NCBI GenBank assembly: GCA_051599415.1
Contig: AP039692.1
Coordinates: forward strand, 248,001-312,000
Direction of reading: 5' to 3'
DNA: 64,000 nt
Source of the DNA: Savitreella phatthalungensis
Taxonomy: Eukaryota
Shown: positions 42,801 through 59,031 of the stretch, piece by piece
Layout: every line of letters starts with the position of its first letter
How positions within the stretch are numbered: position 1 is the stretch's first letter
Notes under the pieces: model-generated
Told to the model about the DNA's origin: nothing
Databases searched by the model: none
What the model saw: only the letters and a program-made list of their open reading frames with translations
Translations under genes and position numbers: made by a program

Positions 42801-45184
42801 GCACGCGATGTCTCGATCGCCTCGTCGATTCCGGCAATGACATCTGAGGCTGTCGAGATGAAGAACTCAGTAGCTTCGGCGAGCTCTTCGTCACTCGCCC
42901 GATGCCAGGTGATGCGCAATGCATTAGCTGGGGTAAGACGACCCCAGGATTCGATGCCAGTCACCGCGCCACCAACTTCCTCGGCCACGAGTCGGCGATG
43001 ATCGGTTGGATATGTCTCGACCAGTCCTTCTAGGTAGCTGGACACAAGAATACCAATGAACTCGGTCGCTTGCGAGACACAGTTGCCCATCAGGAATGAG
43101 ACGAGCTCCCGCAGCTCTTTGCGGTGTGCGATCAACTCTGGTCCTCCAGCGTCAACAAGTCCTTCGAGGCAGCGGATGTACCAAACAAGGCCGCGGTCGC
43201 GCGGCAGGATGTCTGCACCGCCGGAGCGCGTGCTGCCTGCGTGGTTGTCAAGCACTTCGGAGCGGATGCTTGCAGTCAAGGGACCAAAAAATGCATGCCA
43301 GGTTTTGTGTGGTCGGGCCTTGCATAGCGCATTGACGACGCCAGACATAGTGTCCGCGACATTGTAGAGCGTATGGCCCTGACAAAAGTCGACGACCTTG
43401 CGGCAGGCGAGGTCGAATAGCTCGTCCGATAGCGCGACGCAAATCGGCGTCATAGCACAGATAAGCTCATTCTGAGCTTGAGATTCACCAGAAGAGGACG
43501 ATGTGGTGGGTGGCAGGTTCTGCAGTAGAATGAAGATGCGATCAAGCAGCATGGACACAATGTCTCGCCACGCGGCTGTTGATGAGCGCGTGTCTTCCAA
43601 GTCTCCAGGTCCGAAGTCCGTGGCATCTTCTTCGAGAAGCTGCAAGTCGCGTTCGACGACTTGCTGTGCTCGCGAGATGTCTCCATCGGTAGAGACATCC
43701 TCGATGCTGACGGCATGGGCTACTTGCGTGAGGAACATGAGCGTCATGCTGGTCTTTCCGAGATCGTTGGCATCGATACCTGGCAATGCAAGGGTGACGA
43801 GCGTTGTCAGATGTGTCCGCCAGCGCGGGTGCACCACGAGAACGGACGTGAGATTTCCGAGGTCATGCAGCGAGACTGCCGTCCGATGTGCCTCAACTAG
43901 ACCTTGTAAAGATGGGTAGATGCGCTTCAGTGCTCCTGGAATGACCTTATCCGGTGCTAGCATTGCAAGCCCTTGAAGTGCCGCTTGAGCCAGGTTTTGT
44001 ACATCTCCAGAACGGTTGTACGTCGCCATGAAGGTGACTTTCAACAAGATATCTACCAGGCGATCGCCCGGACCGATATTCTCCGGCGACTGATATTCGC
44101 CAGATTCTTCACGATTCTTGCGCAACTGGTAGAATGTTACGAGTTCATATAGGACGCTTGCGAGAGGTGTGATCCATGCGCCGGAGTTACTTGGGTGGAA
44201 AAAATTCTCAGTGGCGTCAATGAAGGTCTGCAGACGAGCATATACGCGGTCGTCAGGCAGCATGTACACCAGCAGCCGTGCGACATCCTTTGCGGTCGTG
44301 TATTTACGGTTGAAGAAGATGCTCTTGGCATAAGCATCGGTCGACTTGTGGGAGCCTCCTGTGGAGTTGCCAACAGGGATTTTCATCAGACGTAGCAGGT
44401 GTGTGAAAAGGTAGTCGAGCTGTGTATCGGTGAGCAGGTTACCGCGCTGACCAGAGAGGAATGCATCTCTTGACCAGCGTGACAGGAACTCGATGATGAC
44501 GGCGTCGGCTACATGTGAGCTCCCCAATAGGTTCCATAAGTGGAAGATGGTGGGCATGACCCGGTCGACGTGTGCATAGCTCTTCGTTGGCAGGAACCCA
44601 CAGACCAGGTAGAGGCAAAGGAAGGCGTCGTCGAGATCCGATGTCTGGAACAAAGGTAGAAACTCTGTGAGCATCTCTTCTGTGGCGCTCAACGGGAAGT
44701 AGCCCTGGGCGTGAATTAGTGTTTTCAAGTGGTATAAGTCTTCTGCATCGACAGCTCGGATGATGAGCTCGCCGGAAGGAACGAGGATTCGCTTGATAAC
44801 GAGCCATAGTCTCCGCCAGTCGAGCTCGATATCGATGTCTCTGCGCTTTGTGAGCGTGAGGAAGGTCGTCATGAAACGTGCATGTGGGCGTGAGTCTATG
44901 CCAAAGGCGGTGATGAGCTCGTAGTAAATACGAATCAGGCGAATACGTAGCTCCTGCGGCATTCGAAACTTGAGCGACAGCCAGTCACGAAGCTCCGTAT
45001 TCCAGTAGAGCGCTCGAGGCCAATCTTCAGAGGCCAGTGCGTGCTCGAGTGCATCGACGACGATAGAGAGGCGGGCCAGCCGCTCTTCTTGCGTCTCTGT
45101 GGTGTATGGCAAACAGCTGAAGTATGGGAACGTCTGACCATCGTGAGACCACACAGCCATATCTCGACGATGACGAGAGACCAT
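39854..45184 (-). CDS. BLM10: Proteasome activator Blm10/PA200
   Basis: 1776 aa; LPYTTE, FFHPSNSGAW, LPGIDANDLGKT, FKKTHNDTW and C-terminal YFA proteasome-docking motif. Confidence 0.95.
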   Translation of the reverse strand: MVSRHRRDMAVWSHDGQTFPYFSCLPYTTETQEERLARLSIVVDALEHALASEDWPRALYWNTELRDWLSLKFRMPQELRIRLIRIYYELITAFGIDSRPHARFMTTFLTLTKRRDIDIELDWRRLWLVIKRILVPSGELIIRAVDAEDLYHLKTLIHAQGYFPLSATEEMLTEFLPLFQTSDLDDAFLCLYLVCGFLPTKSYAHVDRVMPTIFHLWNLLGSSHVADAVIIEFLSRWSRDAFLSGQRGNLLTDTQLDYLFTHLLRLMKIPVGNSTGGSHKSTDAYAKSIFFNRKYTTAKDVARLLVYMLPDDRVYARLQTFIDATENFFHPSNSGAWITPLASVLYELVTFYQLRKNREESGEYQSPENIGPGDRLVDILLKVTFMATYNRSGDVQNLAQAALQGLAMLAPDKVIPGALKRIYPSLQGLVEAHRTAVSLHDLGNLTSVLVVHPRWRTHLTTLVTLALPGIDANDLGKTSMTLMFLTQVAHAVSIEDVSTDGDISRAQQVVERDLQLLEEDATDFGPGDLEDTRSSTAAWRDIVSMLLDRIFILLQNLPPTTSSSSGESQAQNELICAMTPICVALSDELFDLACRKVVDFCQGHTLYNVADTMSGVVNALCKARPHKTWHAFFGPLTASIRSEVLDNHAGSTRSGGADILPRDRGLVWYIRCLEGLVDAGGPELIAHRKELRELVSFLMGNCVSQATEFIGILVSSYLEGLVETYPTDHRRLVAEEVGGAVTGIESWGRLTPANALRITWHRASDEELAEATEFFISTASDVIAGIDEAIETSRASAGKVRQEWSDVIVSRLSYLENLLAGATELFESSRAFRSDEEVSLDNLQYTSVYPYGRRVPERARLDAFRDSIGLSLHKWHNYLTAHHADDVLCFDVLLLVFKTWFGNVGYQRADGSQSKLTNIYVEDIAQFKVPGRRKAYPRPYLVRRALLYHVQRTKHATLTVDVTPTHRLLLEDLQQTSIGAYTEIRAIAQSALNMALRSVADVRSSVIPFFLDALDSSDQEIVKGALYTLSGKGIKSFIGRSEYFPRLLRKLVLLSNADKPSMMLPVKQAYLECALKSRPPPPVCVYEKDELSVKSDIVGRDSERQAALRADLVELARSADWRIAGAAMSSLGASVSSLGLPLSSEVATLTFSMAISDHPALRTIAGAQINHFLGLCWLRVLAGGDLTRAATEELLVPGRQIVSASEADGQLRDTRVGWLVWPDEVEIFKPGPSPEVDAETAKIFADLGPTVSLDWFVRLVGFWREEPKEGHGKFRTHVAHFLRLFFVCTRRMTGAVTLEQARPLITELCGRDQPHFHQRVGAEMLAGAMGSLRYESEEYAAETMSWCTELLKDVLHTGLTPENLSYWQSCVTTTLRHRDARRFANLVPLLLTLADLDDTSAFAASARLSVLRKAIGAIGWRFVGGDLASQLARHLAHPYKRVRDEIGKTLSLLWASRPRGYKNVPDLLDACAGKDFGVAAYPPSPALRECMQATFSQLAIWRSERPPGAEQPTAYTTGCKTTLAWLSCGIDSTEVHQLLPFVPTLILPELLHMLDVKEDHDLLVLAVNLFKALSNAVYPPEQVHPMSQSLVEIMTTHKQWHHRLRVMAILQVFYYRNVFYIGVADRQAILDAVVLLLSDAQLEVREGAASTLSGMIRASSTQRDETIDRLIRLFQSQLDRAPVSRSQQAILARHAPILGLSALVSAFPYDSPPLWLPEVLARLARSADNPHPIGASIKRVLASFKKTHNDTWHIDQKAFTQEQLDDLAEPSHTYFA

Positions 45185-45616
45185 CAGATCTTAACGTAAA
45201 GTGCGTGTCATTCAAAGTCGTCGACGTCTATGGAGTAAAGGATAGGTGTAAGTAGCTAAGGTTACGCGTCGCGTGCATGCGTCATGAGCGCCACGAATTT
45301 CGAAGGTATTGTGGCGGTGTTTTTTGCGTTGGCTTGAGGCCTGGGCTGAATCACATGTTGGGTCACATGTTAAAGTGCCAAATAGAGTGTAGGGGCAGAT
45401 GCCAGACTCGTGAGCCATCTAGACGATATATCATACCGGACTCGCCAGTGCCAGGTGTTCAGACTTCGATTCTGTTCGCCCGTGACCGAGAGAGCGCCAT
45501 GAGCTTTCTGTTCGGTGTCAAGCGCCCGGTCCCAAGGGGTAAGCGATGGACGTAGAAAGAGAAACGTGACTTTCAGTCGTGACTCGTAACAATTTACCTG
45601 ACCTGACTCGAGCTGC

Positions 45617-48069
45617 TCATCGGAGCGCTCTCAGCTCTTGCTGTAATGCCTGTCTCGAGTTGGATCGTTTGATGCTGGCAGGCATGTGAGAGACGCTTGC
45701 GATGCTGCTTCTCCGCGAGTCACTGGCGTGGCGTGTATGCGATTGAGCAGTCGATGTTCCGCGCAGATCGACCTCGCTACGAGATCGCTGTGGTGCGTAT
45801 GAGTAGGTCGTGCTGAGTGAGGATGCATCTCGTGCGGCCCCAGGTGGCGCTTGACCATCTCGCGGCATGCTGATCGGATATCCTTCACGAGTGAAATTCG
45901 CGGGATCGCGGTACTGGCGCGAAAGCGACACAGGCGGACGGGAGCCGGGACTGGGCAGGCTTCGTTTTCGCGGAGTGTCTCCCGCGGGATGCGTCGAGAA
46001 GACACGGCCGTTACGTGTGGTCATCGTGAGGCTCGTCAAGCTCGTCATGCTCGAGGTTCGAGATGAGGAAAACACGCCCGGGACTGGTGGCAAGGAGCTC
46101 GTACTGGAGCTGCGAGGGACTTGGGATCGTGACGGGACGGAGCTCGTGCTCGACGTCCTTAGGGCGCCATTCGAAGAGAGACTCGAAGCACTCGGCATGC
46201 TCGCTGCCAAGGCAGCTTCGGTTTGACTGCGTGAAGGTACAGCGGACGATAAGCTAGTCTTTCCAGAAGCAGTAAGAGAAGTGGACTGGCCTCTGGAGGC
46301 TCCCACACCTGATGTTGTCGTCAAACTGCCGCCAGGCAAAGTGCTCGCGCGAAAGATACTCGGCGCCGACGGTCTTGCACTCGACGTTTGCTGCAACTGA
46401 GAGCTCGTTCGTGGCACAGACGCCGAGGAACTTGTCTGGACGGCAGGATTAGTATTGAAAACCCTTCCTCGAGCAGGCGTCGTGCTGATGCCTGAATTGT
46501 AGGAACTCTGAGTGGACTTTGCCAGGGACGCCGAACGCGAGGACGACGAGAAGACAGAGGCAATCCTTGATAGAAGGCTGCTTGATGCTTGTGTTGCCGG
46601 GCACACGTTCCTTGCGAGTCCGAAAGGTAGAAAGATTCGCGGCTCATCGGAGAGTGTGACGTTGGTAGTCTTGCCTACAATAATGTTTTGGCATGTAACG
46701 ACATCGACTAGCTGTGTGCCTGGAGCAAACGCCGTCGACAGTGAGAGCTTTCGGGTAACATTGGCATTCGAGAGGAGCATTAGAAGTGGTCCCTTCTGCA
46801 CAGCAAGCGTGTTACCATCGCTGTATAGCCCCGAGGTCAGGTTCGTGCCGAATCCAGCATCCCAGGCGGTCGATCTGACCTTGTTCAGAAGTGTAAGCCA
46901 GGGAACATACGCCGTCTGTGTCCAGCCCGCTCCCCACAGGTACTCGCGATTCTGCGGATCTGCTCCTCCACTGAAGCCATATTCCTGACCCTGGTATACC
47001 ACGGGTATGCCATCTGACAAGACCGTGTAGGCCATCGCACTTCGGATAATACTGGGTGTCGATGATACCTCTGCGGGAAAGCGCGGATTGTCGTGATTCT
47101 CCATGAATGTTCCGAGCAACTGTGTATCAACGAATTTTGAGCGGTAAGAAGATGAGAGAAGCGCTGCGAGCTCTGTCATGCTGCCTCCAGCGGTGAAGGC
47201 TCGTCTGAGCGGATAGTATGTAGCGTAGTCTAGCAAGCCACCGACGTATGGTTGGTATGCAGACAGGTAATTCGGATCGCCACTGAATACTTCGCCGATG
47301 CAGAATACACCCGAGGCTGCAATGAATGCTGGCCAGAAGTCCTTGCGGACATGCTTGACGGTGTCGAGTCGGAGCCCATCTATACGATATGTCTGGACGA
47401 GTGAATTGATCCACGAATTGAGCCACTTGACGTTGTCGACGTTCTCCGTATCGATGTCAGGCAGTGGTACATTCGGGTCTCCGAGCCAGCCCTGCTCGAC
47501 GAGCGTCTGATTTGAGTAATCTGTGATGAGCTGCTGTGGGTGATATTGGGAGGCAGAATTGAAAGGTCTATACCGCGAGTAGTCAACATTGGCGGTGCTG
47601 CCCATGTGATTGATGACGATGTCGACCATGAGAGCCATTCCCCGTGCGTGGAGTGCGTCTGACAGGGCGAGCAGATCTGCATTGGTTCCGAAGTGAGGAT
47701 TCAATGATGTCAGATCTTCTGCCCAGTATCCATGCCAGCCGTAGCCATATGTTGTGAAATCCTCTATATTCTTGACGACTGGTGAGATCCAGACCGCGTC
47801 AAAGCCCATAGACTGAATGTGATCGAGTCTGCGGATGACACCCTGCCAGGTACCGCCACAGAAGACGCCCTTGGCATAATCGCAGGAGACTTCGCCTGAT
47901 TGCTGTGTAGGTGCAAATCGGTCAGTAAGAAGCTGGTAGATGCTTCGACGTCGCCATGCACTGTCGTCAGTCATTGCTCGGACAGTCCATTCATGGTCAC
48001 CTACTCTTGTGTCATGCAGTCTGCCAACGCGACCAGAAATAGTATCGCGTGGAGCACCGGTGTATGCAT
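45617..48069 (-). CDS. Secreted GH13 (Taka-type) alpha-amylase with a long Ser/Arg-rich tail; exons 48069-48005 and 47960-45617
   Basis: WRRRSIYQLLTDRF, GWHGYW, DIVINH, DGLRLDTVKHV, GEVF and FMENHDNPRF; a 44-nt intron (GTAGGT..CTGAC..CAG, 48004-47961) adds signal peptide MHTPVLHAILFLVALADC. Confidence 0.9.
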
Positions 48070-49163
48070 GTGGATGCAGCTTGGATAACTTTTTTGGCTG
48101 AATCGTGTATCCGAATATTGTTACGGTGTATTTTGAGATGATCACGGGTTGGATGTGAGAGCCAAGGATTCAGTGTGCGAGGGAAACTGGACAGTATGAA
48201 TCCAGGGCTACAGCTGCAGCCTGTTGATGGCTGTGCAGGCGGGTGCAGCGGGTCGTTGTGGATGCACCTGGAAAGAGAGATAGACGGTATAGTCGATGCT
48301 ACAGGCGTGTGCGTGCACGTGTATCAGTCAATCAGCATGTAACCCTGGATAAGAATGCTCGAGGGGCGAGAAACAAGATGCTCAGCAGGGGCATTCGCCA
48401 GAATACCTTCCTACGACAGGACAGGGGGCTCAATTGACTTATAGGGACATGTACCGGGAGTGTTGTAGGTCATCTATGAAGTGCTTGAAAGGCACGGCTG
48501 TATCACCGAACACGGACGCCAAGCTTGTTGGCTGGACAAACCTTCATGTTTGACCTGTCCGAGAGAGGACAGGTCTTCGGCGGAAGGAAGCTTCACTCAA
48601 ACCCGTGTTCCTTGTGATTGGGTCAATTGCCTTGCAGGACGATAAACCTACACCAGGAAAAGCAGACCTTCATGCTCCAGTGTTTGGATGGCCCCTAGAG
48701 CGGAACTCCTTTCCTTGCTCTTGCACGAGATTGATTGATCTGCGGTCTTGAGCACCGTGAATGCTGGCTGTCCGTGGAGGATGAAATTTGAGTTACCCCC
48801 TTCCCGTTTCCGGTCAACATTCCTACCACATTCACAAAGCAAAGGGATTTCCTCGGCTTTCCAATCTAATCAGTCTGAAGTTTAAATCTCAAATTGGACT
48901 GGAAATCGATGTTTGCCTTTAATAATCCTCTAAATTCATTCTCGATTGGCAGATCCGATGATCCTTGGTTTGGACCAACAATTTTGACCGTGATCAGAAT
49001 ACAGAATACCACACGCTTGCGCTGATCTGTCGACCTCAGCTCGATCTAGGTCGGTCTTCCGCAGTGTTCTGCTTCCTCAGAATCTGATCCTGCCTGCGAC
49101 CGAACTTCGCCGGGTGTAACGGCAAGTAGAACAAGGGATGGACAGGAATGCAGGTTGCCAACG

Positions 49164-49211: not shown

Positions 49212-49535
49212 TGAAGCTGAGCGACTGTACTCGAGCGTAGAATCTCTTGCTCTGCCATTTCTGCTATGGCTGACTGCTGCTGCGGCGGTACGTGTGAGCC
49301 AGTGATAGCTTTTCGCTTTGTGATACGGCCGAATGCAGGAAATCGTCGCAGCATGTCGCAAGCAGATCACGTGTGACCTGAATATCCTGCTCCTGCACGT
49401 GCATCATCTGCGCGATGCGGATTCTTTCGGTCGATCATGATCAAATAGATGCACGAGATACACAGGACAATATACACCAGTGCTCCAACGTCCTACATCG
49501 ACCACGATCTTCTGTAACGCAGTGATACGTCCGTC

Positions 49536-49838
49536 ATGAGCTCAGAAGAGTCACCGATCGTCGCCTTGTACCGCAAGCCCACATGGCTTGGGCTAGCGCG
49601 ATCGAGTGTGATCAATTTAGTCCTGCCCTTCCTCAACGGCGTCTTTCTCGGATTTGGCGAAATATTCGCTCACGAAGTAGCTTTTCTGCTCGGCTGGCGA
49701 GGTGCGAATGTCAAGCCAGGGCACAGAATGGTTGGACCAGGTGTCAAGCTGGAATCACAGAGGCTGGGAGGTATGACGCAGGATCTCGAGCAGGTGAACC
49801 GAAAGGATGGCCACTACGTCCTCCCAGGTCTCGAGTGA
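49536..49838 (+). CDS. MIM1: Mitochondrial import protein Mim1/Tom13
   Basis: INLVLPFLNGVFLGFGEIFAHE signature. Confidence 0.92.
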   Translation: MSSEESPIVALYRKPTWLGLARSSVINLVLPFLNGVFLGFGEIFAHEVAFLLGWRGANVKPGHRMVGPGVKLESQRLGGMTQDLEQVNRKDGHYVLPGLE

Positions 49839-50916
49839 TGCATCTGCACTCGATGGACGAGCGGCGGCTGCTGATTGATCGGACTCATATCAATCTGATG
49901 CGATCACGGTGAAGGATGCAGGCTATCCCGCACATAGGTCGCGATCGATAGAACTCAAGGTGCGCTACCCTGTGTCTAAATCTTAAGACTGGAATCAGCG
50001 CGACCTGAATGCCGCGCTTCATTCAGCTTCCGCTTCGTCCTTTTATATTGTACATATATGCATGTCCATTCGACCCCATTCCGCACGGTTCCTGTGGAGT
50101 AACAAATCCGCTCGTGATGAAGTGGTGAGGAATAAGTTTTTCAAGCCAAATCTGGTCGATCTGGCAGGCCTTCCGGGTTGTGCTGCACGGCTCGAGGAGA
50201 CTCGTCTGCGGCTGTAGGAACTTTGCTTTCGACTGCGTCTCGAGAAGAACTCAGTGGCGGACGTCGTTGCCAAGCTCGTGTATAAACTCCGGACTTTCCC
50301 GTAGTTTTCGGTTCTGTCACCATTCAGTCGAGGAGGGCACAATTGTCGAGACGAAGGAGAACCAGACCAGTTGTCAGAAGTGATTCGTTTCTTGTTGCGA
50401 GTGGGTTGTGTCCCTGCAAATGCTTGGTCTCCGCGACCTAGCTCTCGTATCACCCGAACGTCATGTGTACTGCGTCAAACTGTCAACTATATATGCAGAT
50501 TAGCTCCTCAGCTGCAGAATCCACCATTTTAGCAGATAATGCATCGGTAGCGTCACAGTATCACTTACATTACGCTATGAAAGGTCGCACAGCATACCCG
50601 TGTATGCTATGCTGCAGAAGAACGACAACACAACACGCATGTCGACATCGGTGTCCCGGTTTCCTCGATATGAATGACCACCCTGACACACGAGCATCAG
50701 CCCCATTTACACGTGCCACACTTTTATAAATTCTCCGCAATTGCCATTAATAGAATCACTCGCCAAATTGCAACACATTCGTCATACACCTGCCGACGAC
50801 ACTTCACGACACCAGCCATCATCCGTTTGCAAAAGACATGCAAGCTGAACACCGTATACCGTTCTGGCAATCTCAATGCGCTCGAGACTACGAGCACGCG
50901 TCATGACGAAGTCAGC

Positions 50917-52076
50917 TCGGCTGTCATTAAGCACCAGATGCTCGGCTACCACTAAATAACACGTCGTCGCGTCAAATCTTCAACAGGACGTCCAAAATCC
51001 CCTCGGCTATACTCTTCGTCTGACATTCTCGACCAGAGAATTGCGCGTCTTTTCCAACGAAATATCTCGGCTAGCATGTCGGCTGATTTGTCAACCCAAA
51101 CATCTCGGCTGTTGATGGCACCCTCGGCAAGCCGTCGTACCCTTCTACGTCCCCGAATGACGTCTGAGCATCGCTCGTCAGCCCAGAAAGTGCAGTCGGA
51201 GGGCATCGATACCCGTATGCTACTACGTCTTGTGCAAACACCTCCGACATTGCCCTCGCGATCGCCGCGTACAAGTGAGTATACTAACTGATACGCATGG
51301 GAGGTTAGCCGAGCGACGATGTGAATGACAACGGTGGGTTGCCAAGGCGATGACGCACTGTTGTGGGTGCTCGGCAATCTACTCCACGGCCCGCAACGGC
51401 AATTGCGAACACAGACGCGCCGTTGACAACGGCAATTATCGGCTAAGTCGACGGCAACGGCTGCAGCACGACGGTTGTCGAAAGCATTATCGGCTGGCTC
51501 AATAATAACGGCTGGTTGCTATGTGTGAGGGCTTTTACGTCATTGCAAAAGGGCGTAGATTGCTCGAATTGGGGAATCGATCGACAGGGGAATGCCTCAA
51601 TCGTCGGAGAATTGAAATCACAAGATCGTCACATGTCCGTTGCAAAAGGTTTCCCAATTAGGAAATTCCATGTAATTGGGGTTAACATCGGCTCCACAAC
51701 AGGCACGACCACACTCCGATACCATTGACATCAAAGGTTCACAAAGTGTCCGACATGGCCTAGGATATCGAGGAGAAGGCGTACAGGCTCAAGACTAGGC
51801 TCATTCGACTCCGATAGAGCTCTGCTACACGATGAAATGGCATGTGGAAACGACAAATCAATGCGAACAGACCTTGTTCGTTTTGACAATGTGGCATCCC
51901 CGGCGCGATCACAATTCGAGTTCGTCGTTTTCTAAACTACAATCACCAATCGGTTCCCCACTCGTCACGGAAGGCTAACTCACTGAGACACAACAGACTA
52001 GCCATCTTTTACCTCAATGTCAAAACCATTGAAGAATTATCGGCTACCTTCGGCTACAACGATGGCATTTTCGGCT
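50917..52076 (+). promoter_or_regulatory. Clustered TCGGCT and (C/T)AACGGC motif array upstream of the orphan gene
   Basis: 13 TCGGCT/AGCCGA copies and 5 YAACGGC/GCCGTTG copies counted by eye. Confidence 0.55.
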
Positions 52077-52143
52077 AGGTCCTGGACCCCCGTCGAAAGT
52101 GATAAAAGGAAGCTCAATCCCATTCTTGTTCACCATCTTCTTT

Positions 52144-53289
52144 GTAAGAACCCCTTCAACACTCACTGCTCGTCCGGCCTCGCTGGCGATGACAGAGGGA
52201 TCTTCAATGGCGCGCCAGAGTTTTCCTCAACGGATCTCTCTTGGTAGTCCAGGGCAATTCTCTTAACGAGAGTCCTGGCCGCGTCTAGTAAGATTTTCCC
52301 TCATGGTCATCGTCGGCGGGTCGGGTCGATCGGGCTCGCCTGGCCTAGCCAGCGATGCCAGGGTTTCATCACCCAGTGAGGAGCGATCCGAGCGCCGTCG
52401 TGCGCCTACCCTTTACCGGGTTGGCGTGCGGCTGGTCAGCTTGGACTCTGTCTCGTAACGAGACAGAGTCCAGGCGAGCTCGACGCTTCTCACCGTGATG
52501 GAACAATCCTGGTGTCGCTGGTGAACGGCTGGGACGATGTCCCGACCGGCCCCTTGCCGGCGGCGTTTGAGCGCGTGGGCCAAGTCTTCTTGGTCCACGT
52601 ACCGTTGATCCTCCTATGTTCCCTTCTCGAGGGGAACACGGAGGTCGCGGTGCGTGGATTCATTGAGGCTGGTCTGCGACTCAGGCGTCGTCGCGTCAAG
52701 GGGATAAAACCGGTCGGTGTACTCGTCCCAGCCTAGCCGGTGATGCTACGAGGTAGGTGTCGTCGGTCCACCCAGACCTCGCTCATTATTGAGCGTGTGT
52801 CTGGTTCGGACCGGCGTACCGTAAGTCCTCTCAAGCATCACCGGTGAAGAGGTCAGGTCAAGGCTCGTTCGGACCGAGCTGGCGGAGACGCCAGAGGTTG
52901 TCCTATGCCTTCCCATGGCCGCATTAGCGGTTCTTGGGAGGTGTGGGCGCCTCTGGCGTCTCCGTCGGCGAAGCGTCCGTGCGAGCCCGAGGGCCCACGC
53001 GAGCGCCACCGAGGTTGTCCTCGAGAGGTCATGCCAGTCTTTCAAGACTCTGGTATGCTTCTCGTGGACGCCTCGACGGCGCAAGCGTGGCGTCCGCTCG
53101 AGCCCGAGAGACCCTTGCCTGTCGACGCGTGGGGCGTTCGTACCCCTTCGTTCCTTCAACTCTCTGCCCGTTTACCGGGTCGAGAGACGGAGGGACGAAG
53201 GCGGAGCGTGTCGCCCCGACCGCGTCGTCAGCGAGGCTGCGTCTTGCAGAGCGAGTTCCAGGTTCGAGCACGTCAACTAACATGTATAG
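52144..53289 (+). other. Candidate ~1.15-kb 5'-UTR spliceosomal intron filled with a large branched RNA structure
   Basis: GTAAGA donor at 52144 (alternatives at 52288, 52821, 53053); ACTAAC at 53276-81; TAG at 53287-89; many long stems inside. Confidence 0.65.
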
Positions 53290-53393
53290 TGATACTACTT
53301 CGTTCGTCCTACAACCGGCCGAACAATCTAGCTCTCTGACACTCTACAACTCTTTCGGAACTTCTCCAATTTTCAACTTTCCACTTTAACATC

Positions 53394-54464
53394 ATGGCTT
53401 TCTCTGCTATCAAGTCCATCGCCCTCTTCGGCAACAAGAACTCCAAGAACGCCGCCTCAATTAAGGCTTCCAAGCAGTCCAAGAACGCCTTCTCGGCCTC
53501 TTCTGCTCCTGCTCAGCCCAAGGCGACCAAGTGCACCTCTGACAAGATCAAGGCCACTGTGTCAAAGCTCTCATGCGGTTCGCTCAAGTTCAAGACCAAG
53601 GCCGAGAAGGCTGCTAAGAAGGCTGCAAAGGAGGCTGAGGCCAAGCTCGCCCAGAATCTGGCCGACCGCAACATGTACTTGGTGCCTTACTCTGAGCGTC
53701 TCCTTGGTCCTTCCATCTACGACGCCCCGATCGAGGCTGAAGAGGAGTTTTGCCCTTTCCCCGACGTCGAGACGATGGACGACCTGCTGCGTCATGTCCA
53801 GTTCTACGCTGCTGCTCGCAAGCCTGAATACGCTGATGCCGAGTGCATTCAGTCGCAGGCTGGTGACATCAGCTACGTGCACTCCGAGGCTGGCGAGATC
53901 AGCTGCACCTACTCAGCCTCTATCTACTCGGAGATTCCTACCGCTGACCAGGTCGACGAGGACACCTCAATCCTCGCCGAGACCCTGGGTGCACCTGCCT
54001 CGGGCACAGCTACCCCTACTCCTCAGACTGTCGCCACTCCCTTCGTGGCTGACAGTGCGGACAGCTGGTCAATCGAGCGTCCTTCCGAGATGTTCGCTGA
54101 CATGCTGTCCTCAAAGCTCGAGACCGTCGAGGAGGAGTGCGAGGCTCCTGCAGCCGCTGAGCCCGAGACCACGCCTGCCCCAAAGATTTCCAGCATGTGC
54201 TCAAAGCTGTTCGGCGCCACTACCCCGGACGTCGTGAACACGAACGTGGCTGAGGAGACTGAGGCCTTCTCCTACTCGCTCTTCCCCGAGCGCCGCACCT
54301 GGCACGTGGAGGCAGAGGCTCGTCGTCAGGCCCTCACCCTCGGCGGTCAGGAAAAGCCCACCTACCAGGTCTTCAACTACGACTCGTTCGACGGCAAGGT
54401 CACTGACGTCATCTTCACCTGGGGAAACACTTCCCAAAACCGTCAGGTCGTCAACCAGGCTTAA
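53394..54464 (+). CDS. Orphan 356-aa protein with Lys/Ala-rich N-terminus and acidic middle; no recognised domain
   Basis: Long ORF with strong C/T third-position and AAG/GAG codon bias; good start context (acatcATGG). Confidence 0.85.
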   Translation: MAFSAIKSIALFGNKNSKNAASIKASKQSKNAFSASSAPAQPKATKCTSDKIKATVSKLSCGSLKFKTKAEKAAKKAAKEAEAKLAQNLADRNMYLVPYSERLLGPSIYDAPIEAEEEFCPFPDVETMDDLLRHVQFYAAARKPEYADAECIQSQAGDISYVHSEAGEISCTYSASIYSEIPTADQVDEDTSILAETLGAPASGTATPTPQTVATPFVADSADSWSIERPSEMFADMLSSKLETVEEECEAPAAAEPETTPAPKISSMCSKLFGATTPDVVNTNVAEETEAFSYSLFPERRTWHVEAEARRQALTLGGQEKPTYQVFNYDSFDGKVTDVIFTWGNTSQNRQVVNQA

Positions 54465-54549
54465 GCGAAGCCCAATCCTCCAGTCCTCGGGGCCCAGAAA
54501 GCAGCAAAGCGACCACAAGCGCGCCAGCTAACACAACAGACTAACAATT

Positions 54550-55182
54550 CACCGGATCGGGTCAGAGATACTCTGCAACAAAGACGCGAGGCGCGATGGT
54601 CAGGTGGGACGTGAGGTGATCGAGGATACTGCGCGACAGAGCATCTGGAGTGCGCTGGCGAGGTGCGAGGGCTCTATGGAAAGCTTGTGTGATGAAGAGA
54701 GACTTTGTGGAGGTGGAAAGTGAGCGAGACGTGGGGAAGTCCACTCTTCAAAAAAATCCAACCGTGTCTGCTGGAGTGTGCGACTTTCTTTTCTTTCTGT
54801 TTCACTTCCGGAGGGGAGAACGGCGCCTAGGCGGACGAGCACCCCATACCCAGAGGGACTTGAGGGTGAAACTCGTCCGAAGGAGTCCTGACGATTCAGA
54901 GGTCCTGAATTCTGTCATGCCCAAAGGAAGTGAAACATGAAAGAACAAGGAATCACCGCACGTCACACACAGACATCGGAAGGATGGAAGAGTCGGATCA
55001 AACCTTCATCGAACAAGCTTTTCCCCATAAACATTCTCCTCCCTACTCACAATGTCCTAGATCCTCAATTCTCGTCGGTGAGCACTTCGTGCCTGTGTGC
55101 TAGTGTCTCTTGGCGCTTGACCTACCACGTCATCCATCGCTGCGCGACCACACACGACACTATCTCTGACCTGATCCCGGTG
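54550..55182 (+). other. ~630-nt rod-like structured 3' region of the orphan gene
   Basis: Closing stem 54550-70/55161-82; inner stems 54680-88/55013-21 and 54798-809/54926-37. Confidence 0.65.
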
Positions 55183-55557
55183 GCTGGGGCGTATTGCCAC
55201 CTAGTTGCTTTCTGGGATCCGCTTTCGGCAGGAGGAACTCGCATCGATATGACTAACTTTACAGGTTCTTTGACTATAGCGTACCACGACCGACACGTAC
55301 GACATACACATTCTCACACGACAAGCATACGAACGATTCAAGCATCATAGTACTTTCTCATAGCGTTTGGCAGGATTTTATTCCAAATCTTATTTTTGTC
55401 TTCAGCTGATGAGAATCATGTCCGATGATGTGCACGACACGGTGTGAGACGCATGTTCAGGGATTAGGTTAACGTGGAAGATGATTATGTGCGTGCGTAC
55501 GTTTGAGATTCTTTCTCCTTCCTTTGTCAGCTGGCTCGTCTGTCGATTTCCCGAGGT

Positions 55558-58500
55558 CTAGCCTCTGATCCTGACCGCTGCGTCACCAAAGGCTCTCGGT
55601 TTGGTCGATCGATCTAGGTGGTCGATGCCTAGTGCGTCATCGTGCGATCTGACGAGGTCGTAAGGGACGTCGTCGTCGAGGAGGTAGTGTGGCTTGGTGT
55701 AGGAGATTGAGGCTGCTGGCAAGGCGTTGACGACGGCGACTTTGATCCGCTTGACTTCGTCGGCGTTGAATTTCGCCTTCTCCGCAAGCCGCACTTTCAT
55801 GTCGGCAAAGTATTCCCCGGGTTTCAGCCAGAATCTGAAAGGAATTCCGTGAAGGCGAGACATGTCCTTCTGGAAGTGGAGGACATTGACAAGGCGATCC
55901 TCTTCTGATGTCCGCTCGTCAACCTCAGGCCGTACCATCTCGACGTAGAAGTGGGAGAAATCGTGCAGCATGACAACAGGCACGGTCGACTCGAGCTCGC
56001 GGTGGTAGCGATGGTTGTGGACTTCGTACATCCGCAGAGGCGTCGATGTTGACAAGCCTTCAACTTTTGCCCGAACAAGCGATAGCGCGTCGCTCACGAA
56101 ACCAGTCTTGGCCACGAGCAGATCCAGCGGCACCTCCTTCGTCACGCCCTCGGGCAAGAAGCTTACCTTCAGGACCTTTTTCATTTCGAGCTCTTTCAAG
56201 GTCATCTCCAGCACTTCGTACATGAGCGACTCGCTTGGTTGCTCCAGGTATGCCGGTTGGAGAATGCTGGATAGTGTGGTGGTCGGGATCGGCTTCACGT
56301 ACTGCTTCGGCTGCATGTTGACTGAGCTGACGGTCCAGAGACGCAGATGAGAGGCCTCGACACCCAAGTGCTCCGCAATCTTGGCAGCGATCGTATCGTA
56401 TTGCATCTTCTTACTGAGTGTCAGCTGTGTCGGGGGTGCGGCGATCGCATTGCCGTTTGTGCCACCGACTGCCGCCGCGGCTGGGTCAGGAATTGCTGGC
56501 TTCGGCAGAAGCGTGATCGTCACCTTGTTCTGTACAAAGTCGTAGTAATCCTGTGCGGTCGAGAACTTGCCTGCTTGCATCATGGTGAGACGGTCGGTCT
56601 CTGGGATCACCCGCTGTACACAGACAATGTCGCCATCAACAATCTCGGCCTGCTGGAAAGTCTGACGAAGTCGCAGCGGCTCGATCATGCCTGGCTTGAT
56701 TTCCTCAAACAGCTTCAGCTGCGGGCGATCTGGGAAGTGCACGCTCAACTTCTCAACCAGGGCTTCGATCTTGTCCTGTCGGTGCATGTACTCGACGCAG
56801 AGTCCATTCATCGTTTGGCGCTCCACATCGAACAGCTTGACAAAGAGCATGAAATGCGTGTTGTCCGGTGCGCCATCGACGAGTGGAGCCATCTGTAGTT
56901 TCTCCTCGTCGAGAATCTCAAGATACAGCAAGAACTCAGGCCGACGTGGACCAAACTCGTCACGGAGCTCGGCGAGCGTGTGTACGTCGTACTTCGAACC
57001 GATGACGACATCTGGTCGAATAGTTTTGTTCTGACGATTGACCATGACCCAGTGTCGAATTCGTTCGGGCGCAACGTTGTACGTCTTAGCAGCCTGCTCT
57101 TTGAATTCACCATAAGTTAAGGTCTTCAAGACCTTGTGCGACTCAAGTCTCTTTGGGTCGTAGTCAGTCAGATCGAACCCGGTGTGTTCTTGGAAGTCGC
57201 TTTCGCGAATCACACGGATTTGGAGGTAGAGGTGCATCTCTTCCCGCTCTTTGCGCCAGCGCATCTCCTCCGCAAGCTCTCGCTCGATCCGCTCAGAGAC
57301 GTGCTTTGGTATGTCAGCATCTGCAACGTCACCAAGGATCTCGTCCTGCCGTGTCTCTTGCACATAGACCAACATGTACGCATTCATCGAGCGTCGCAGG
57401 GCCGCAAGACGCGCATTTGGCCTCTGTCCTGGGGCTGGGTAGCCACCACCGAAGTTCTCGTCGAGTACCTCCTTGAGCGTGCATGGCGTGACACGATCGT
57501 CGTCGAATTTATACCACTTGCCGTCCTTCTTTGGCTTCAGCAATGCGTAATAATGACCACCGTGAAGATCTCCGGAATGCACAAGCACACCATGAAGTTT
57601 GTAATTGTAGTTCTGGGCAGGATCAACGCTCGTCTCATCGAGGAATTCCTTCAGGTCGATCTCAAGCGGAAATTCGTGTCGGTCATTAATCTTGACCATG
57701 GCATCCCGCTCCATGTCATACTCGAAGCGCTTCAGCTGGAGATGAAGTACTGGTGGGAAGTTCTGGAAGATGACACCCTTCTTGGCGTCTTGCAAGCCAT
57801 AGCCTTCGGCGAAGTACTTGTTGTCGCCGTCGAGTGTTTCCACTTGGACGTAGTCCTTGAAGGATTCACGTAGATCCTTCAGGCCCTTAACGTTCAGCTG
57901 GATATCCCAGAATTCCTCTTCCCGGGCAGATTCATAGTTGACACCGACGCACTTAATATAGCTCTTCATCTTACCGACAAACAACCTGCTGAGCGCATTC
58001 TCGGCTTTCGTCTTCTTCATCTTGCCCTCGAGGTTGTCCTGAAGAACACGATTGAATTCCTGGACGTCATGCTGCATGAATGCATCCAGTGAGTTCCATC
58101 CGAATGATTGAGTCAACTCGAGCGTTGAAGCAGGTTCTTCTGACTTCTCCATCTGGTAGAAGATTCGCTGAAGCGCCAAAGCGATACTGTTCGTTGGATC
58201 GTCGTTCTCCGTTGGGATCTGATATACCGCCTTGCGGAAATAGGTGGTAAAGTACAGGGATTGCAGGAGTGAGTTCATATAACATGTTGCGCCTTGGTTC
58301 TTCAGACCGACCATGCCAGTGACTTTTTTTGAGTCGTAGTTGTTGAAGTTGTGCCAGAGAACGCCAGTGGGATCCTTGACGATCTTGACGTAGCTCGAGA
58401 TCATCAGTTCGCCGTGCTCCAACAGCGGCCGATCATGGCCATCGTGGTTGTAGCCGAGCTTGCGGATGTCATACAAGCGCGAGAAACCCCAGTCCGTTTC

Positions 58501-59031
58501 GTCATTCGTGAATCGATGGGAGGCGACATTGCTCATGTGAACGACTGACTTGTTGCAGTTCCAGAGGGCGATTCCGAACATGGCACAGCATGCCCAGTCG
58601 CGCTGTTGCTCAGGAGGTGTCTCCGGGTCAATGTCTTCAGGTAAACATTCGAGATATGCTGCGGTCGTGTCCGGCGCTGTGTTACCAGAGGGAAATAGTA
58701 GGAGTCGCCACCTGTGGCCGCCTGCTGACCACCAAGGCGAGTGAACTTTGCGGTCGAGTGATGCCCAGTCAGTAATGTGCCAGTCATGATGGCCGGTAGC
58801 AAGTACTTCTAGGTCATTTGGTGCCTGGAGGAGCTTGTCGAGGAAGACCTGGCCGTCTTCTGGTGTGATTGTCTTTTCATCCGTAACACTCATTGAATCG
58901 TTGGAGTTGGGTACGTGGTTGGCGCCATTCGTGCGTGAGTCGACAAGATCATTGTCGCGCGGTGTTGGTGAGGTATCTATCAAGGGCGTGTCGTTGTCAA
59001 GCGACATGAGGTCATGCTCTAACGGATTCAT
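55558..59031 (-). CDS. UBP15: Ubiquitin C-terminal hydrolase USP7/Ubp15 (MATH + USP + UBL domains)
   Basis: MATH DWGF; Cys box GLKNQGATCYMNSLLQ; QHDVQEF; His box HSGDLHGGHYY. Confidence 0.96.
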   Translation of the reverse strand: MNPLEHDLMSLDNDTPLIDTSPTPRDNDLVDSRTNGANHVPNSNDSMSVTDEKTITPEDGQVFLDKLLQAPNDLEVLATGHHDWHITDWASLDRKVHSPWWSAGGHRWRLLLFPSGNTAPDTTAAYLECLPEDIDPETPPEQQRDWACCAMFGIALWNCNKSVVHMSNVASHRFTNDETDWGFSRLYDIRKLGYNHDGHDRPLLEHGELMISSYVKIVKDPTGVLWHNFNNYDSKKVTGMVGLKNQGATCYMNSLLQSLYFTTYFRKAVYQIPTENDDPTNSIALALQRIFYQMEKSEEPASTLELTQSFGWNSLDAFMQHDVQEFNRVLQDNLEGKMKKTKAENALSRLFVGKMKSYIKCVGVNYESAREEEFWDIQLNVKGLKDLRESFKDYVQVETLDGDNKYFAEGYGLQDAKKGVIFQNFPPVLHLQLKRFEYDMERDAMVKINDRHEFPLEIDLKEFLDETSVDPAQNYNYKLHGVLVHSGDLHGGHYYALLKPKKDGKWYKFDDDRVTPCTLKEVLDENFGGGYPAPGQRPNARLAALRRSMNAYMLVYVQETRQDEILGDVADADIPKHVSERIERELAEEMRWRKEREEMHLYLQIRVIRESDFQEHTGFDLTDYDPKRLESHKVLKTLTYGEFKEQAAKTYNVAPERIRHWVMVNRQNKTIRPDVVIGSKYDVHTLAELRDEFGPRRPEFLLYLEILDEEKLQMAPLVDGAPDNTHFMLFVKLFDVERQTMNGLCVEYMHRQDKIEALVEKLSVHFPDRPQLKLFEEIKPGMIEPLRLRQTFQQAEIVDGDIVCVQRVIPETDRLTMMQAGKFSTAQDYYDFVQNKVTITLLPKPAIPDPAAAAVGGTNGNAIAAPPTQLTLSKKMQYDTIAAKIAEHLGVEASHLRLWTVSSVNMQPKQYVKPIPTTTLSSILQPAYLEQPSESLMYEVLEMTLKELEMKKVLKVSFLPEGVTKEVPLDLLVAKTGFVSDALSLVRAKVEGLSTSTPLRMYEVHNHRYHRELESTVPVVMLHDFSHFYVEMVRPEVDERTSEEDRLVNVLHFQKDMSRLHGIPFRFWLKPGEYFADMKVRLAEKAKFNADEVKRIKVAVVNALPAASISYTKPHYLLDDDVPYDLVRSHDDALGIDHLDRSTKPRAFGDAAVRIRG

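Follow-up and report, generated by a model that had tools for sequence, protein, structure and literature searches.

Which process could accommodate more than a kilobase of nearly fully self-complementary sequence between the presumed promoter of a gene and its start codon? This question is raised by a locus in the window analysed here, the whole 64,000-nucleotide stretch of Savitreella phatthalungensis DNA (contig AP039692.1, positions 248,001 to 312,000). The initial annotation had described the locus as an RNA-structure-governed gene system composed of a motif-dense promoter, a giant folded 5′ intron, an orphan ORF and a rod-like 3′ region. The individual sequence features of this proposal stood up to analysis, whereas their joint action as one system is conjectural; the 3′ rod, for its part, resembles an inverted repeat in neutral decay. 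The reading that we favour, and to which we give about even chances, is that a lineage-specific gene carries the 5′ block in its 5′ leader as a spliceosomal intron of unusual size (Table 1).

Table 1. Features of the locus, with positions numbered from the first nucleotide of the window.
Feature	Position	Strand	Basis or remark
TCGGCT array, 12 same-orientation copies	50917..52076	+	motif counts; regulatory role presumed
TATA-like TGATAAAAG, then pyrimidine-rich run up to the 5′ splice site	52100..52143	+	sequence reading
Candidate spliceosomal intron, 1,146 nt, in the 5′ leader	52144..53289	+	splice signals, fold, ATG distribution
Self-folding module, 1,068 nt	52174..53241	+	predicted fold, pairing probabilities
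Core closing stem, 18 bp	52174-52191 with 53223-53241	+	pairing probability ~1
Second closing stem	52311-52337/53100-53127	+	predicted fold
Third closing stem	52338-52346/52850-52858	+	predicted fold
Hairpin H1	52195-52302	+	predicted fold
Hairpin H2	52348-52522	+	predicted fold
Hairpin H3	52527-52733	+	predicted fold
Hairpin H4	52736-52845	+	predicted fold
Hairpin H5	52862-52987	+	predicted fold
Hairpin H6	52989-53097	+	predicted fold
Hairpin H7	53131-53217	+	predicted fold
CT-rich 5′ leader, second exon part	53290..53393	+	sequence reading
ORF, 356 aa	53394..54464	+	translation, searches, disorder prediction
Rod, single unbranched imperfect hairpin, 215 pairs	54502..55214	+	predicted fold
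AT-rich trough, GC 0.35-0.39	55320..55440	.	between the rod and the stop of a convergent USP7-type gene (55558)

A lineage-specific gene downstream of an oriented motif array

The ORF is a real, lineage-specific gene. Its product is predicted to be mostly disordered; conservation is seen in a Lys-rich helix region at the N terminus and in a segment of about 57 aa at the C terminus. No Pfam family matched the ORF, in agreement with its annotation as an orphan, but it has one paralogue, named from Savitreella phatthalungensis, and is therefore not an orphan in the strict sense. A HMMER search returned two proteins, the ORF itself and P0002, and no further relative was found: the query stood alone among 8,000 scored candidates in a word-based protein search, a protein-pattern scan of metagenomes matched the pattern 474 times but turned up 0 relatives, and an Atlas features search with the ORF protein reached a best score of 0.79, under the usable level. 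The AlphaFold2 model was unusable (mean pLDDT 35.7). A strain about 98-99% identical differs at six positions within the ORF, four of them synonymous and two conservative.

The region upstream is indeed motif-dense, as first noted. Between 50900 and 52100, TCGGCT occurs 12 times on the + strand where 0.34 copies are expected (Poisson p = 4e-15) and once on the - strand (orientation bias 12:1, p = 0.003), while the remaining 62.8 kb of the window carry 18 copies on the + strand. The copies in the array fall into the sub-types ATTATCGGCT and ATCTCGGCT, the final three being located at 52040, 52050 and 52071. This array is presumed to be an upstream regulatory region, or a piece of an upstream transcript. 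The TATA-like box and the pyrimidine-rich run that follow it are presumed, from their sequence, to be the core promoter and a first exon of very small size; use of the box would make that exon roughly 10-40 nt, a shortness that counts against the intron reading.

The 5′ block is the sole structural outlier of the window

The extensive self-complementarity initially described for the 5′ block was borne out. Folded on the + strand, the block (52144-53289) reaches a minimum free energy (MFE) of -732.6 kcal/mol, or -0.64 kcal/mol per nt, against a mean of -482.4 (sd 10.9) for 40 dinucleotide shuffles (z = -22.9). When 300-nt segments were slid along the whole window, six fell beyond -3 robust sd, all of them within 52201-53250, and segments of the block stood at -11.4 and -11.9 sd in a 700-nt scan comprising 181 segments. 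The 5′ block is the sole structural outlier of the 64 kb.

The predicted MFE structure contains 446 pairs, with about 78% of the block paired, a mean pairing probability of 0.78 and 71% of the bases above 0.9. It is hierarchical, with paired ends, bulges and multiway junctions, seven hairpins (H1-H7, 87-207 nt each) being nested within three closing stems. The stems are near-perfect and dsRNA-like, 35-89 bp in length, and are capped by loops of 3-6 nt (TTCT, TCAAC, TTAAC, TTTACC, TAA, CTCG, TTAT, ATTA, TTCA and TTTAC). The borders of the block are not an artefact, since contigs from two other studies cross them without a break (X5, 52062-52299; X4, 53159-53385).

A further run, X2, which comes from the sample of the possible source and is tentatively classed as DNA but may be RNA, gave no cover over 52200-52654; its contig depths, to be read with the same uncertainty, were 337.5 (to 50872), 12.9-17.1 (50850-52199), 3.1 (52655-53304) and 297.5 (from 53311).

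Strand asymmetry distinguishes the block from the 3′ rod

The MFE structure of the block contains 56 G-U pairs when the + strand is folded and 12 when the - strand is folded, with respective energies of -732.6 and -599.8. A strand-neutral alignment of the arms yielded 380 Watson-Crick, 52 G-U, 7 A-C and 58 transversion-type oppositions, the difference between G-U and A-C being highly significant (p = 1.4e-9; 1.3e-6 against a composition-based expectation). At positions adjoining helices common to the folds of both strands the counts were 39 G-U and 9 A-C. The G-U bias spans all hairpins, H3 alone having 15 G-U and one A-C, and the single strain variant within the block, 52280 C>T, converts a G-C pair into G-U. 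These observations point to pairing kept on the + strand RNA and not to a plain DNA palindrome. RIP was considered as a source of the transitions and rejected: it would yield G-U and A-C equally, and it is reported absent in Taphrinomycotina, including the related Taphrina deformans (PMC3648899). The block is also old, its arms having diverged to 76% Watson-Crick pairing, although an insert that was merely tolerated would have been lost by simple deletion; this persistence counts against the intron reading.

Downstream of the ORF, and most likely within its 3′ UTR, the rod-like region of the initial annotation was recovered as one unbranched hairpin (z = -6.29, 20 shuffles) with its apex near 54820-54917. 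Its arms are 67.6% complementary, with 25 G-U and 16 A-C (p = 0.21), 56 transversion-type oppositions and 48 gap columns. The annotation had attributed sense-strand G-U wobbles, bulges and multiway junctions, unlike those of DNA inverted repeats, to both folded blocks; this holds for the 5′ block but not for the rod, which carries no sense-strand signature. RNA-level pairing is therefore supported for the 5′ block only, and the rod looks like an old DNA inverted repeat undergoing what resembles neutral decay. A 3′-UTR intron around the rod was also considered and discarded: CTAAC occurs at 54528, 54541 and 55253, and no credible 5′ splice site was found ahead of the rod. The AT-rich trough further downstream is presumed to be a shared termination zone.

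Splice-type signals at the borders suggest an oversized intron

The block is bordered by GTAAGA (52144-52149), matching the fungal GT-type 5′ splice site consensus, and by a branch-point sequence ACTAACA (53276-53282) followed by TAG (53287-53289), an arrangement conforming to CTRAY and YAG within about 30 nt. GTAAG occurs 32 times on the + and 29 times on the - strand of the 64 kb (0.00048 per nt per strand), CTAAC 15 times on the + strand of the window, and CTAAC..YAG at 0.00013 per nt per strand, giving a joint chance of about 1.5e-4 for such signals at the block borders. Looping out the module would leave an effective intron of 78 nt, 30 nt on the side of the 5′ splice site and 48 nt on that of the 3′ splice site; for the related T. 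deformans a mean intron length of 78 nt is reported (PMC3648899). The linkers flanking the predicted core stem measure 30 nt from the 5′ splice site and 36-39 nt to the branch point. Their sum, 66-69 nt, lies inside the 42-85-nt window by which zipper stems are defined in S. cerevisiae (PMC12350175). The branch-point A (53280) is predicted to be 96% unpaired and bases 52144-52147 of GTAAGA 60-74% unpaired; weak outer pairs of the MFE structure touch 5′ splice site bases 52148-52152, and this counts against an intron. Thirteen ATGs lie inside the block, and the spliced leader would have none ahead of the start codon.

The giant folded 5′ intron initially annotated thus finds support in the border signals, the zipper-like stem, the ATG-free leader and the TATA-like box and three motif copies close upstream, and its status is that of a candidate. 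The 52143-53290 joint was absent from the contigs of four runs, none of them listed as RNA, a result that is neutral on splicing. Window-wide intron scans gave 96 mostly spurious candidates by regular expression and 11 implausible ones by ORF joining, and the 44-74 nt that the initial annotation gave for the other introns of the window found no corroboration in these scans. Ribosome shunting across the fold was also considered and dropped, as no short upstream ORF ends ahead of the stem.

In the mechanism that we propose, the block would be an ordinary intron, 78 nt in effect, carrying a 1,068-nt self-folding RNA module. Transcription driven by the TCGGCT array would start just 3′ of the TATA-like box at 52100. 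The local hairpins H1-H7 would fold first, during RNA synthesis, and the three nested closing stems would then zip the module shut, so that at most about 70 nt would separate the branch point (53280) from GTAAGA (52144). A spliceosome adapted to short introns would thereby still be able to excise the block, whose 13 ATGs would be removed before reaching the ribosome. The strand asymmetry would, in this model, result from selection for a compact RNA module in which G-U is tolerated and A-C is not. The module itself probably arose from DNA-level inverted duplications or foldback insertions, and the rod would be another inverted repeat, older and situated in the 3′ UTR, free of comparable RNA constraint.

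The same fold and promoter elements could instead belong to a separate multi-hairpin non-coding RNA gene, transcribed from the TATA-like box at 52100, with the ORF mRNA starting near 53311. We regard this as unlikely. Dicer or RNase III would then cut the stems into small RNAs, or transcription of the block would interfere with the ORF promoter, and the splice-like signals would be incidental or have a part in 3′ processing. Long dsRNA-like stems with 3-6-nt loops and pairing kept at the RNA level speak for such a gene, and the 12:1 motif orientation might reflect a feature that an upstream transcript bears at the RNA level. T. deformans is reported to retain most RNAi genes, including a dcr1 homologue (PMC3648899), and hairpin small-RNA loci are known in fungi, some of them intronic; the well-supported ones are described as short, however, and not as 1.1-kb hierarchical folds (PMC9757828). 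Block segments matched nothing in the rest of the window at E up to 1e-3, and hence no target-like sequence, and this reading offers no account of why GTAAGA and ACTAAC..TAG fall at the borders. The two readings also overlap, since an intron can itself be a hairpin source.

Possible DNA-level origin, possible RNA function and weaker alternatives

The block and the rod might also be nothing but DNA-level products, whether nested foldback or MITE-like insertions, a mobile element of the introner type or inverted duplications made by template switching, devoid of any RNA function. The G-U excess would then stem from strand-biased mutation, through deamination of the non-transcribed strand. We judge this improbable, slightly more so than a separate RNA gene. 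The - strand also folds well beyond shuffled sequences (-599.8 against about -482), so that plain palindromy accounts for most of the signal; the closing stems resemble terminal inverted repeats, and the rod decays as neutral DNA does. Fungal introner-like elements moreover bear both splice signals and stable folds, but they are reported at about twice the regular intron length and in hundreds of copies, as opposed to 1,146 nt here (PMC3609843). Neither the block nor the rod nor any single hairpin recurs within the 64 kb, and the hairpins are dissimilar to one another. A metagenome scan for 23 nt taken from the 3′ border of the block returned no match. As the initial annotation had stated, there is no sign of a transposase or of a target-site duplication: nine of nine small ORFs of the flanks encode no transposase or Pfam domain and have no coding signal, and no direct repeat was found at any of four candidate borders. 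(A tenth flank ORF that was scanned is the neighbouring TOM13 gene.) Finally, a transcription-linked mutation bias should also have produced a G-U excess in the rod, probably part of the same transcript, where 25 G-U face 16 A-C.

The G-U bias affects all hairpins whereas selection for spliceability would need the closing stems alone; this weighs against the intron reading as it stands and hints at a further function, or another cause. The module may be a long-maintained, selected, intron-borne dsRNA device, persisting or diced into functional RNAs after splicing and providing, with the 3′ UTR hairpin, dsRNA-dependent control of the gene and perhaps of its paralogue; we find this version improbable.

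It is very improbable that the block is a viroid-like or other RNA replicon that became endogenised, or an element of the retrozyme type. The size of about 1.1 kb and the closed, branched, 78% paired fold would suit it, but Rfam gave 0 matches at gathering score over the whole window (no hammerhead, HDV-like, twister, hairpin or other ribozyme) and only two chance-level matches, a snoRNA and mir-205, over 50500-55700 at E up to 5. The match to a known RNA family that would have spoken against the annotation was consequently not found, and its viroid-like option receives no support. The small ORFs lack coding signal, and the block sits exactly between the splice signals of a chromosomal gene.

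Least credible of all is one of the large structured RNAs of classical type, for instance telomerase RNA, which in fission yeast is about 1.2 kb and has its 3′ end produced by a splicing step: size, TATA-like promoter and the branch point together with the 3′ splice site at the 3′ end fit, but there is no Rfam match and stems with 35-89 near-continuous pairs do not resemble known telomerase RNAs. Furthermore, no permuted CCCTAA run of at least 8 nt was found on either strand of the whole window, the repeat type being assumed from the TTAGGG telomeres reported for T. deformans (PMC3648899).

Should the block be spliced as we favour, it would constitute an extreme natural test of how a short-intron spliceosome handles a kilobase insert through RNA folding, and a test case for the tolerance of new or expanding introns. 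The strand-specific G-U signature suggests long-term selection on an RNA outside described families, in a little-studied Taphrinales yeast lineage. As a merely tolerated foldback insertion the block would be a curiosity; as part of a dsRNA device it would represent a gene architecture of a kind undescribed in fungi.

Comparison with known systems

The initial statement that no described family matches was too strong, since zipper-stem yeast introns and fungal introner-like elements are close in kind. Rnt1 stem loops are of the AGNN type, unlike the loops of the block. The block nevertheless resembles the Rnt1/Pac1 (RNase III) stems of yeast introns and mRNAs in that it would place dsRNA in a pre-mRNA, where it could direct nuclear cleavage of unspliced RNA (PMC13183374, PMC4334505). 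With hpRNA, milRNA and mirtron-like loci it shares sense-strand hairpins containing G-U pairs, sometimes intronic, but the well-supported fungal ones are short single hairpins (PMC9757828), as compared to seven hairpins within three closing stems.

Introner-like elements are similar in their canonical splice signals, above-regular length, stable predicted folds and apparently selected pairing, compensatory changes having been reported for them; in Dothideomycetes their reported length is about double that of a regular intron, and their near-identical copies number in the hundreds (PMC3609843). The block is about 15 times as long as a short intron, and no further copy of it lies in the 64 kb.

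A parallel in geometry is provided by the zipper-stem introns of S. cerevisiae RPS17B, RPL7A/B, RPL28 and others (PMC12350175, PMC2536676, PMC12311795), whose linker window accommodates the linker sum of the block and some of which are reported to contain long stems and multiway junctions. These introns are mostly 400-500 nt and partly structured, whereas 1,068 of the 1,146 nt of the block form one closed module, in a lineage whose relative T. deformans averages 78-nt introns. The titles and abstracts of the literature searched yielded no kilobase-scale, nearly fully paired nuclear intron in yeast, and the block is far beyond the size and stability range of both zipper-stem introns and introner-like elements.

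A strand-asymmetric fold with intron-like signals upstream of the ORF

The 5' block, a candidate 1,146-nt intron lying upstream of a 356-aa ORF (see table), is predicted to fold on the + strand with an energy of -732.6 kcal/mol, far below that of 40 dinucleotide-preserving shuffles (z = -22.9; mean -482.4, sd 10.9, best -508.4). When all 64 kb were scanned with a 300-nt sliding window, six windows fell beyond -3 robust sd and all six lay within 52201-53250. A coarser scan with 181 windows of 700 nt put those of the 5' block at -11.4 and -11.9 sd, as compared to -2.4 for the next unrelated window. The folded 5' block described in the initial annotation is largely borne out, and it is the sole structural outlier in these scans. 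The fold is hierarchical, with three closing stems and seven hairpins (H1 to H7), of which H3 spans 207 nt and contains 89 pairs; pairing probability averages 0.78 and exceeds 0.9 for 71% of bases. When the block was compared to itself by blastn, a single inverted match of 15 nt was obtained and no mutual similarity between hairpins was detected, nor was there a second copy elsewhere in the 64-kb window; judged by this comparison of DNA sequences, the arms did not arise by recent duplication. The motif TTTACCGGG is found in the apical loops of both H2a (52412-52420) and H7 (53171-53179), where the adjacent stem bases are also alike. The shared loop could bind a common protein or go back to a shared origin.

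Table. Features of the locus and its surroundings
Feature	Position	Strand	Remarks
PSME4/Blm10-type proteasome activator	39857-45190	-	
alpha-amylase	45620-48169	-	
TOM13	49518-49838	+	
5' block	52144-53289	+	candidate intron
Outer stem	52144-52191 with 53223-53269	+	H1 inside
Second closing stem	52311-52337/53100-53127	+	H5 and H6 inside; H7 outside
Third closing stem	52338-52346/52850-52858	+	encloses H2, H3 and H4
ORF	53394-54464	+	356 aa
3' rod	54502-55214	+	long imperfect hairpin
USP7-type ubiquitin protease	55561-59031	-	convergent with the ORF

The - strand of the block folds at only -599.8 kcal/mol, 133 kcal/mol worse than the + strand. A strand-neutral alignment of 14 helix arms, with helix borders taken from the + strand fold, comprised 497 opposed positions: 380 Watson-Crick, 52 G·U, 7 A·C and 58 transversion-type (for G·U against A·C, p = 1.4e-9 at 1:1 and p = 1.3e-6 when base composition, which predicts a 59% share, is taken into account). 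Among pairs adjoining helices common to the folds of both strands, the counts were 39 G·U and 9 A·C (p 1.5e-5; 1e-3 once the composition prior is applied). The simplest reading of this asymmetry would be selection for pairing in a + strand RNA; strand-biased mutation is a conceivable alternative source of the G·U excess. RIP was rejected as it would yield both mismatch types equally, and Taphrinomycotina are reported to lack it (PMC3648899).

The 5' block begins with GTAAGA at 52144 and ends with ACTAACA (53276-53282) followed by TAG (53287-53289). The joint chance of a GTAAG in the 40 nt ahead of the core stem together with a CTAAC..YAG in the 60 nt that follow it is about 1.5e-4, a post hoc value derived from the signal rates of the window itself. 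This core, where the closing stem is robustly predicted (52174-52191/53223-53241), begins 30 nt past the putative 5' splice site and stops 36-39 nt short of the branch point, and both the 5' splice site bases 52144-52147 and the branch A are predicted to be mostly unpaired. With 52174-53241 looped out, the effective intron would measure 78 nt; the mean intron length given for T. deformans is also 78 nt (PMC3648899). A spliced leader would contain no ATG ahead of the start codon, and the 5' block contains 13. Directly upstream, a TATA-like TGATAAAAG lies at 52100, preceded by three TCGGCT copies at 52040-52071. Splice signals, stem geometry, ATG pattern and promoter-like features would all fit an intron.

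On the + strand, 6 of the 15 CTAAC occurrences in the window lie within 50000-56000 (51284, 51975, 53277, 54528, 54541 and 55253; p 0.0016), a cluster that may hint at more introns in the + strand RNAs of this locus. A small palindrome at 51267-51296 carries GTGAGT followed at once by a perfect TACTAAC branch-point consensus.

The ORF, its upstream region and its neighbours

No Pfam family matched the ORF, and a structure model was unusable (pLDDT 35.7). A search of 1.84 billion representatives gave a single relative, P0002, which NCBI lists as a Savitreella phatthalungensis hypothetical protein, so that the family has exactly two members there. The likeness is confined to a Lys-rich N-terminal helix region (41% identity) and to some 57 aa at the C-terminus (60%). 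The contigs available for a strain of about 98-99% identity show six differences in the ORF, four of them synonymous and the others S22A and D91E. We conclude that the ORF is a real, lineage-restricted gene.

The motif TCGGCT occurs 12 times on the + strand of 50900-52100 and once on the - strand (orientation bias, p 0.003), whereas the 18 + strand copies in the other 62.8 kb predict 0.34 (p 4e-15). None of the small ORFs in this region had a Pfam match. The array may be a regulatory region; with nearly all copies facing one way, it could also belong to an upstream transcript. The initial annotation was largely right about both the motif-dense upstream region and the orphan ORF. An 18-nt direct repeat, 89% identical and possibly due to chance, links 51988-52005, about 140 nt before the 5' block, to 54531-54548 near the start of the rod.

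The surrounding genes are ordinary housekeeping genes. On the - strand, 50046-50568 contains a good intron-like signal (GTAAGT..GCTAAT..TAG, 50487-50568) adjoining a 143-aa ORF (50046-50474) without a Pfam match, and may represent a small gene so far overlooked, oriented away from the motif array. In X2, a sequencing run whose kind is only guessed, one high-depth contig stops at 50872 and the next begins at 53311; the intervening 2.4 kb is covered by low-depth contigs only, with a gap at 52200-52654. This pattern could reflect an RNA library, with an intergenic region or intron here, or an oddity at the DNA level. X2 derives from the sample that is also the possible source of the window, and loose-end sequence of one X2 contig, when translated, equals P0002 residues 386-395 and 427-436. 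The window is therefore most likely from S. phatthalungensis, a leaf-surface yeast of Taphrinales (PMC8877625), or from a very close relative.

The 3' rod

The rod is predicted to fold back on itself through 215 pairs as a single unbranched hairpin, topped by two small apical hairpins. The segment 54465-55300 reached z = -6.29 (20 shuffles), and a 700-nt window clipping the rod only -2.6 sd. The complementarity of its arms is 67.6%; their alignment contains 48 gap columns, and its oppositions comprise 25 G·U, 16 A·C and 56 of transversion type, the G·U excess over A·C being not significant (p 0.21). Of six strain differences, two keep a pair as G·U, one breaks a pair and three, including a 1-nt deletion, fall at unpaired positions. 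No credible 5' splice site was found ahead of the rod, and an AT-rich trough (55320-55440, GC 0.35-0.39) between it and the stop of the convergent gene suggests that it lies inside the 3' UTR of the ORF. We read the rod as a probable old inverted repeat without demonstrated RNA-level constraint. The rod had been overstated in the initial annotation, and the proposal that promoter, intron, ORF and rod form one unified RNA-structure-governed system is unsupported.

Interpretation and comparison with known classes

The best reading, to which we give about even chances, is that the 5' block is an oversized 5'-leader intron, in which a 1,068-nt insert would be kept folded and hence still spliceable. 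An independent or intron-borne hairpin RNA with its own function is less likely, and so, to a similar degree, is a functionless foldback insertion. Fungal hairpin small-RNA loci are described as short (PMC9757828). T. deformans is reported to have kept most RNAi genes (PMC3648899), so that an RNA of this kind might conceivably be diced in Taphrinales.

Rfam gave no match at gathering score over the whole window and two chance-level matches only at E up to 5 in 50500-55700; families of ribozymes, snRNAs, RNase P/MRP RNAs and telomerase RNAs are thus all without a match. No TTAGGG-type telomerase template stretch of at least 8 nt was found in the window. Introner-like elements resemble the 5' block in their splice signals, stable folds and selected pairing; they are described as about twice as long as regular introns and present in hundreds of copies (PMC3609843). 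The linker sum of the putative intron, 66-69 nt, lies inside the 42-85-nt range which defines the zipper stems of S. cerevisiae introns (PMC12350175). The 5' block would belong with the structured spliceosomal introns, a known kind.
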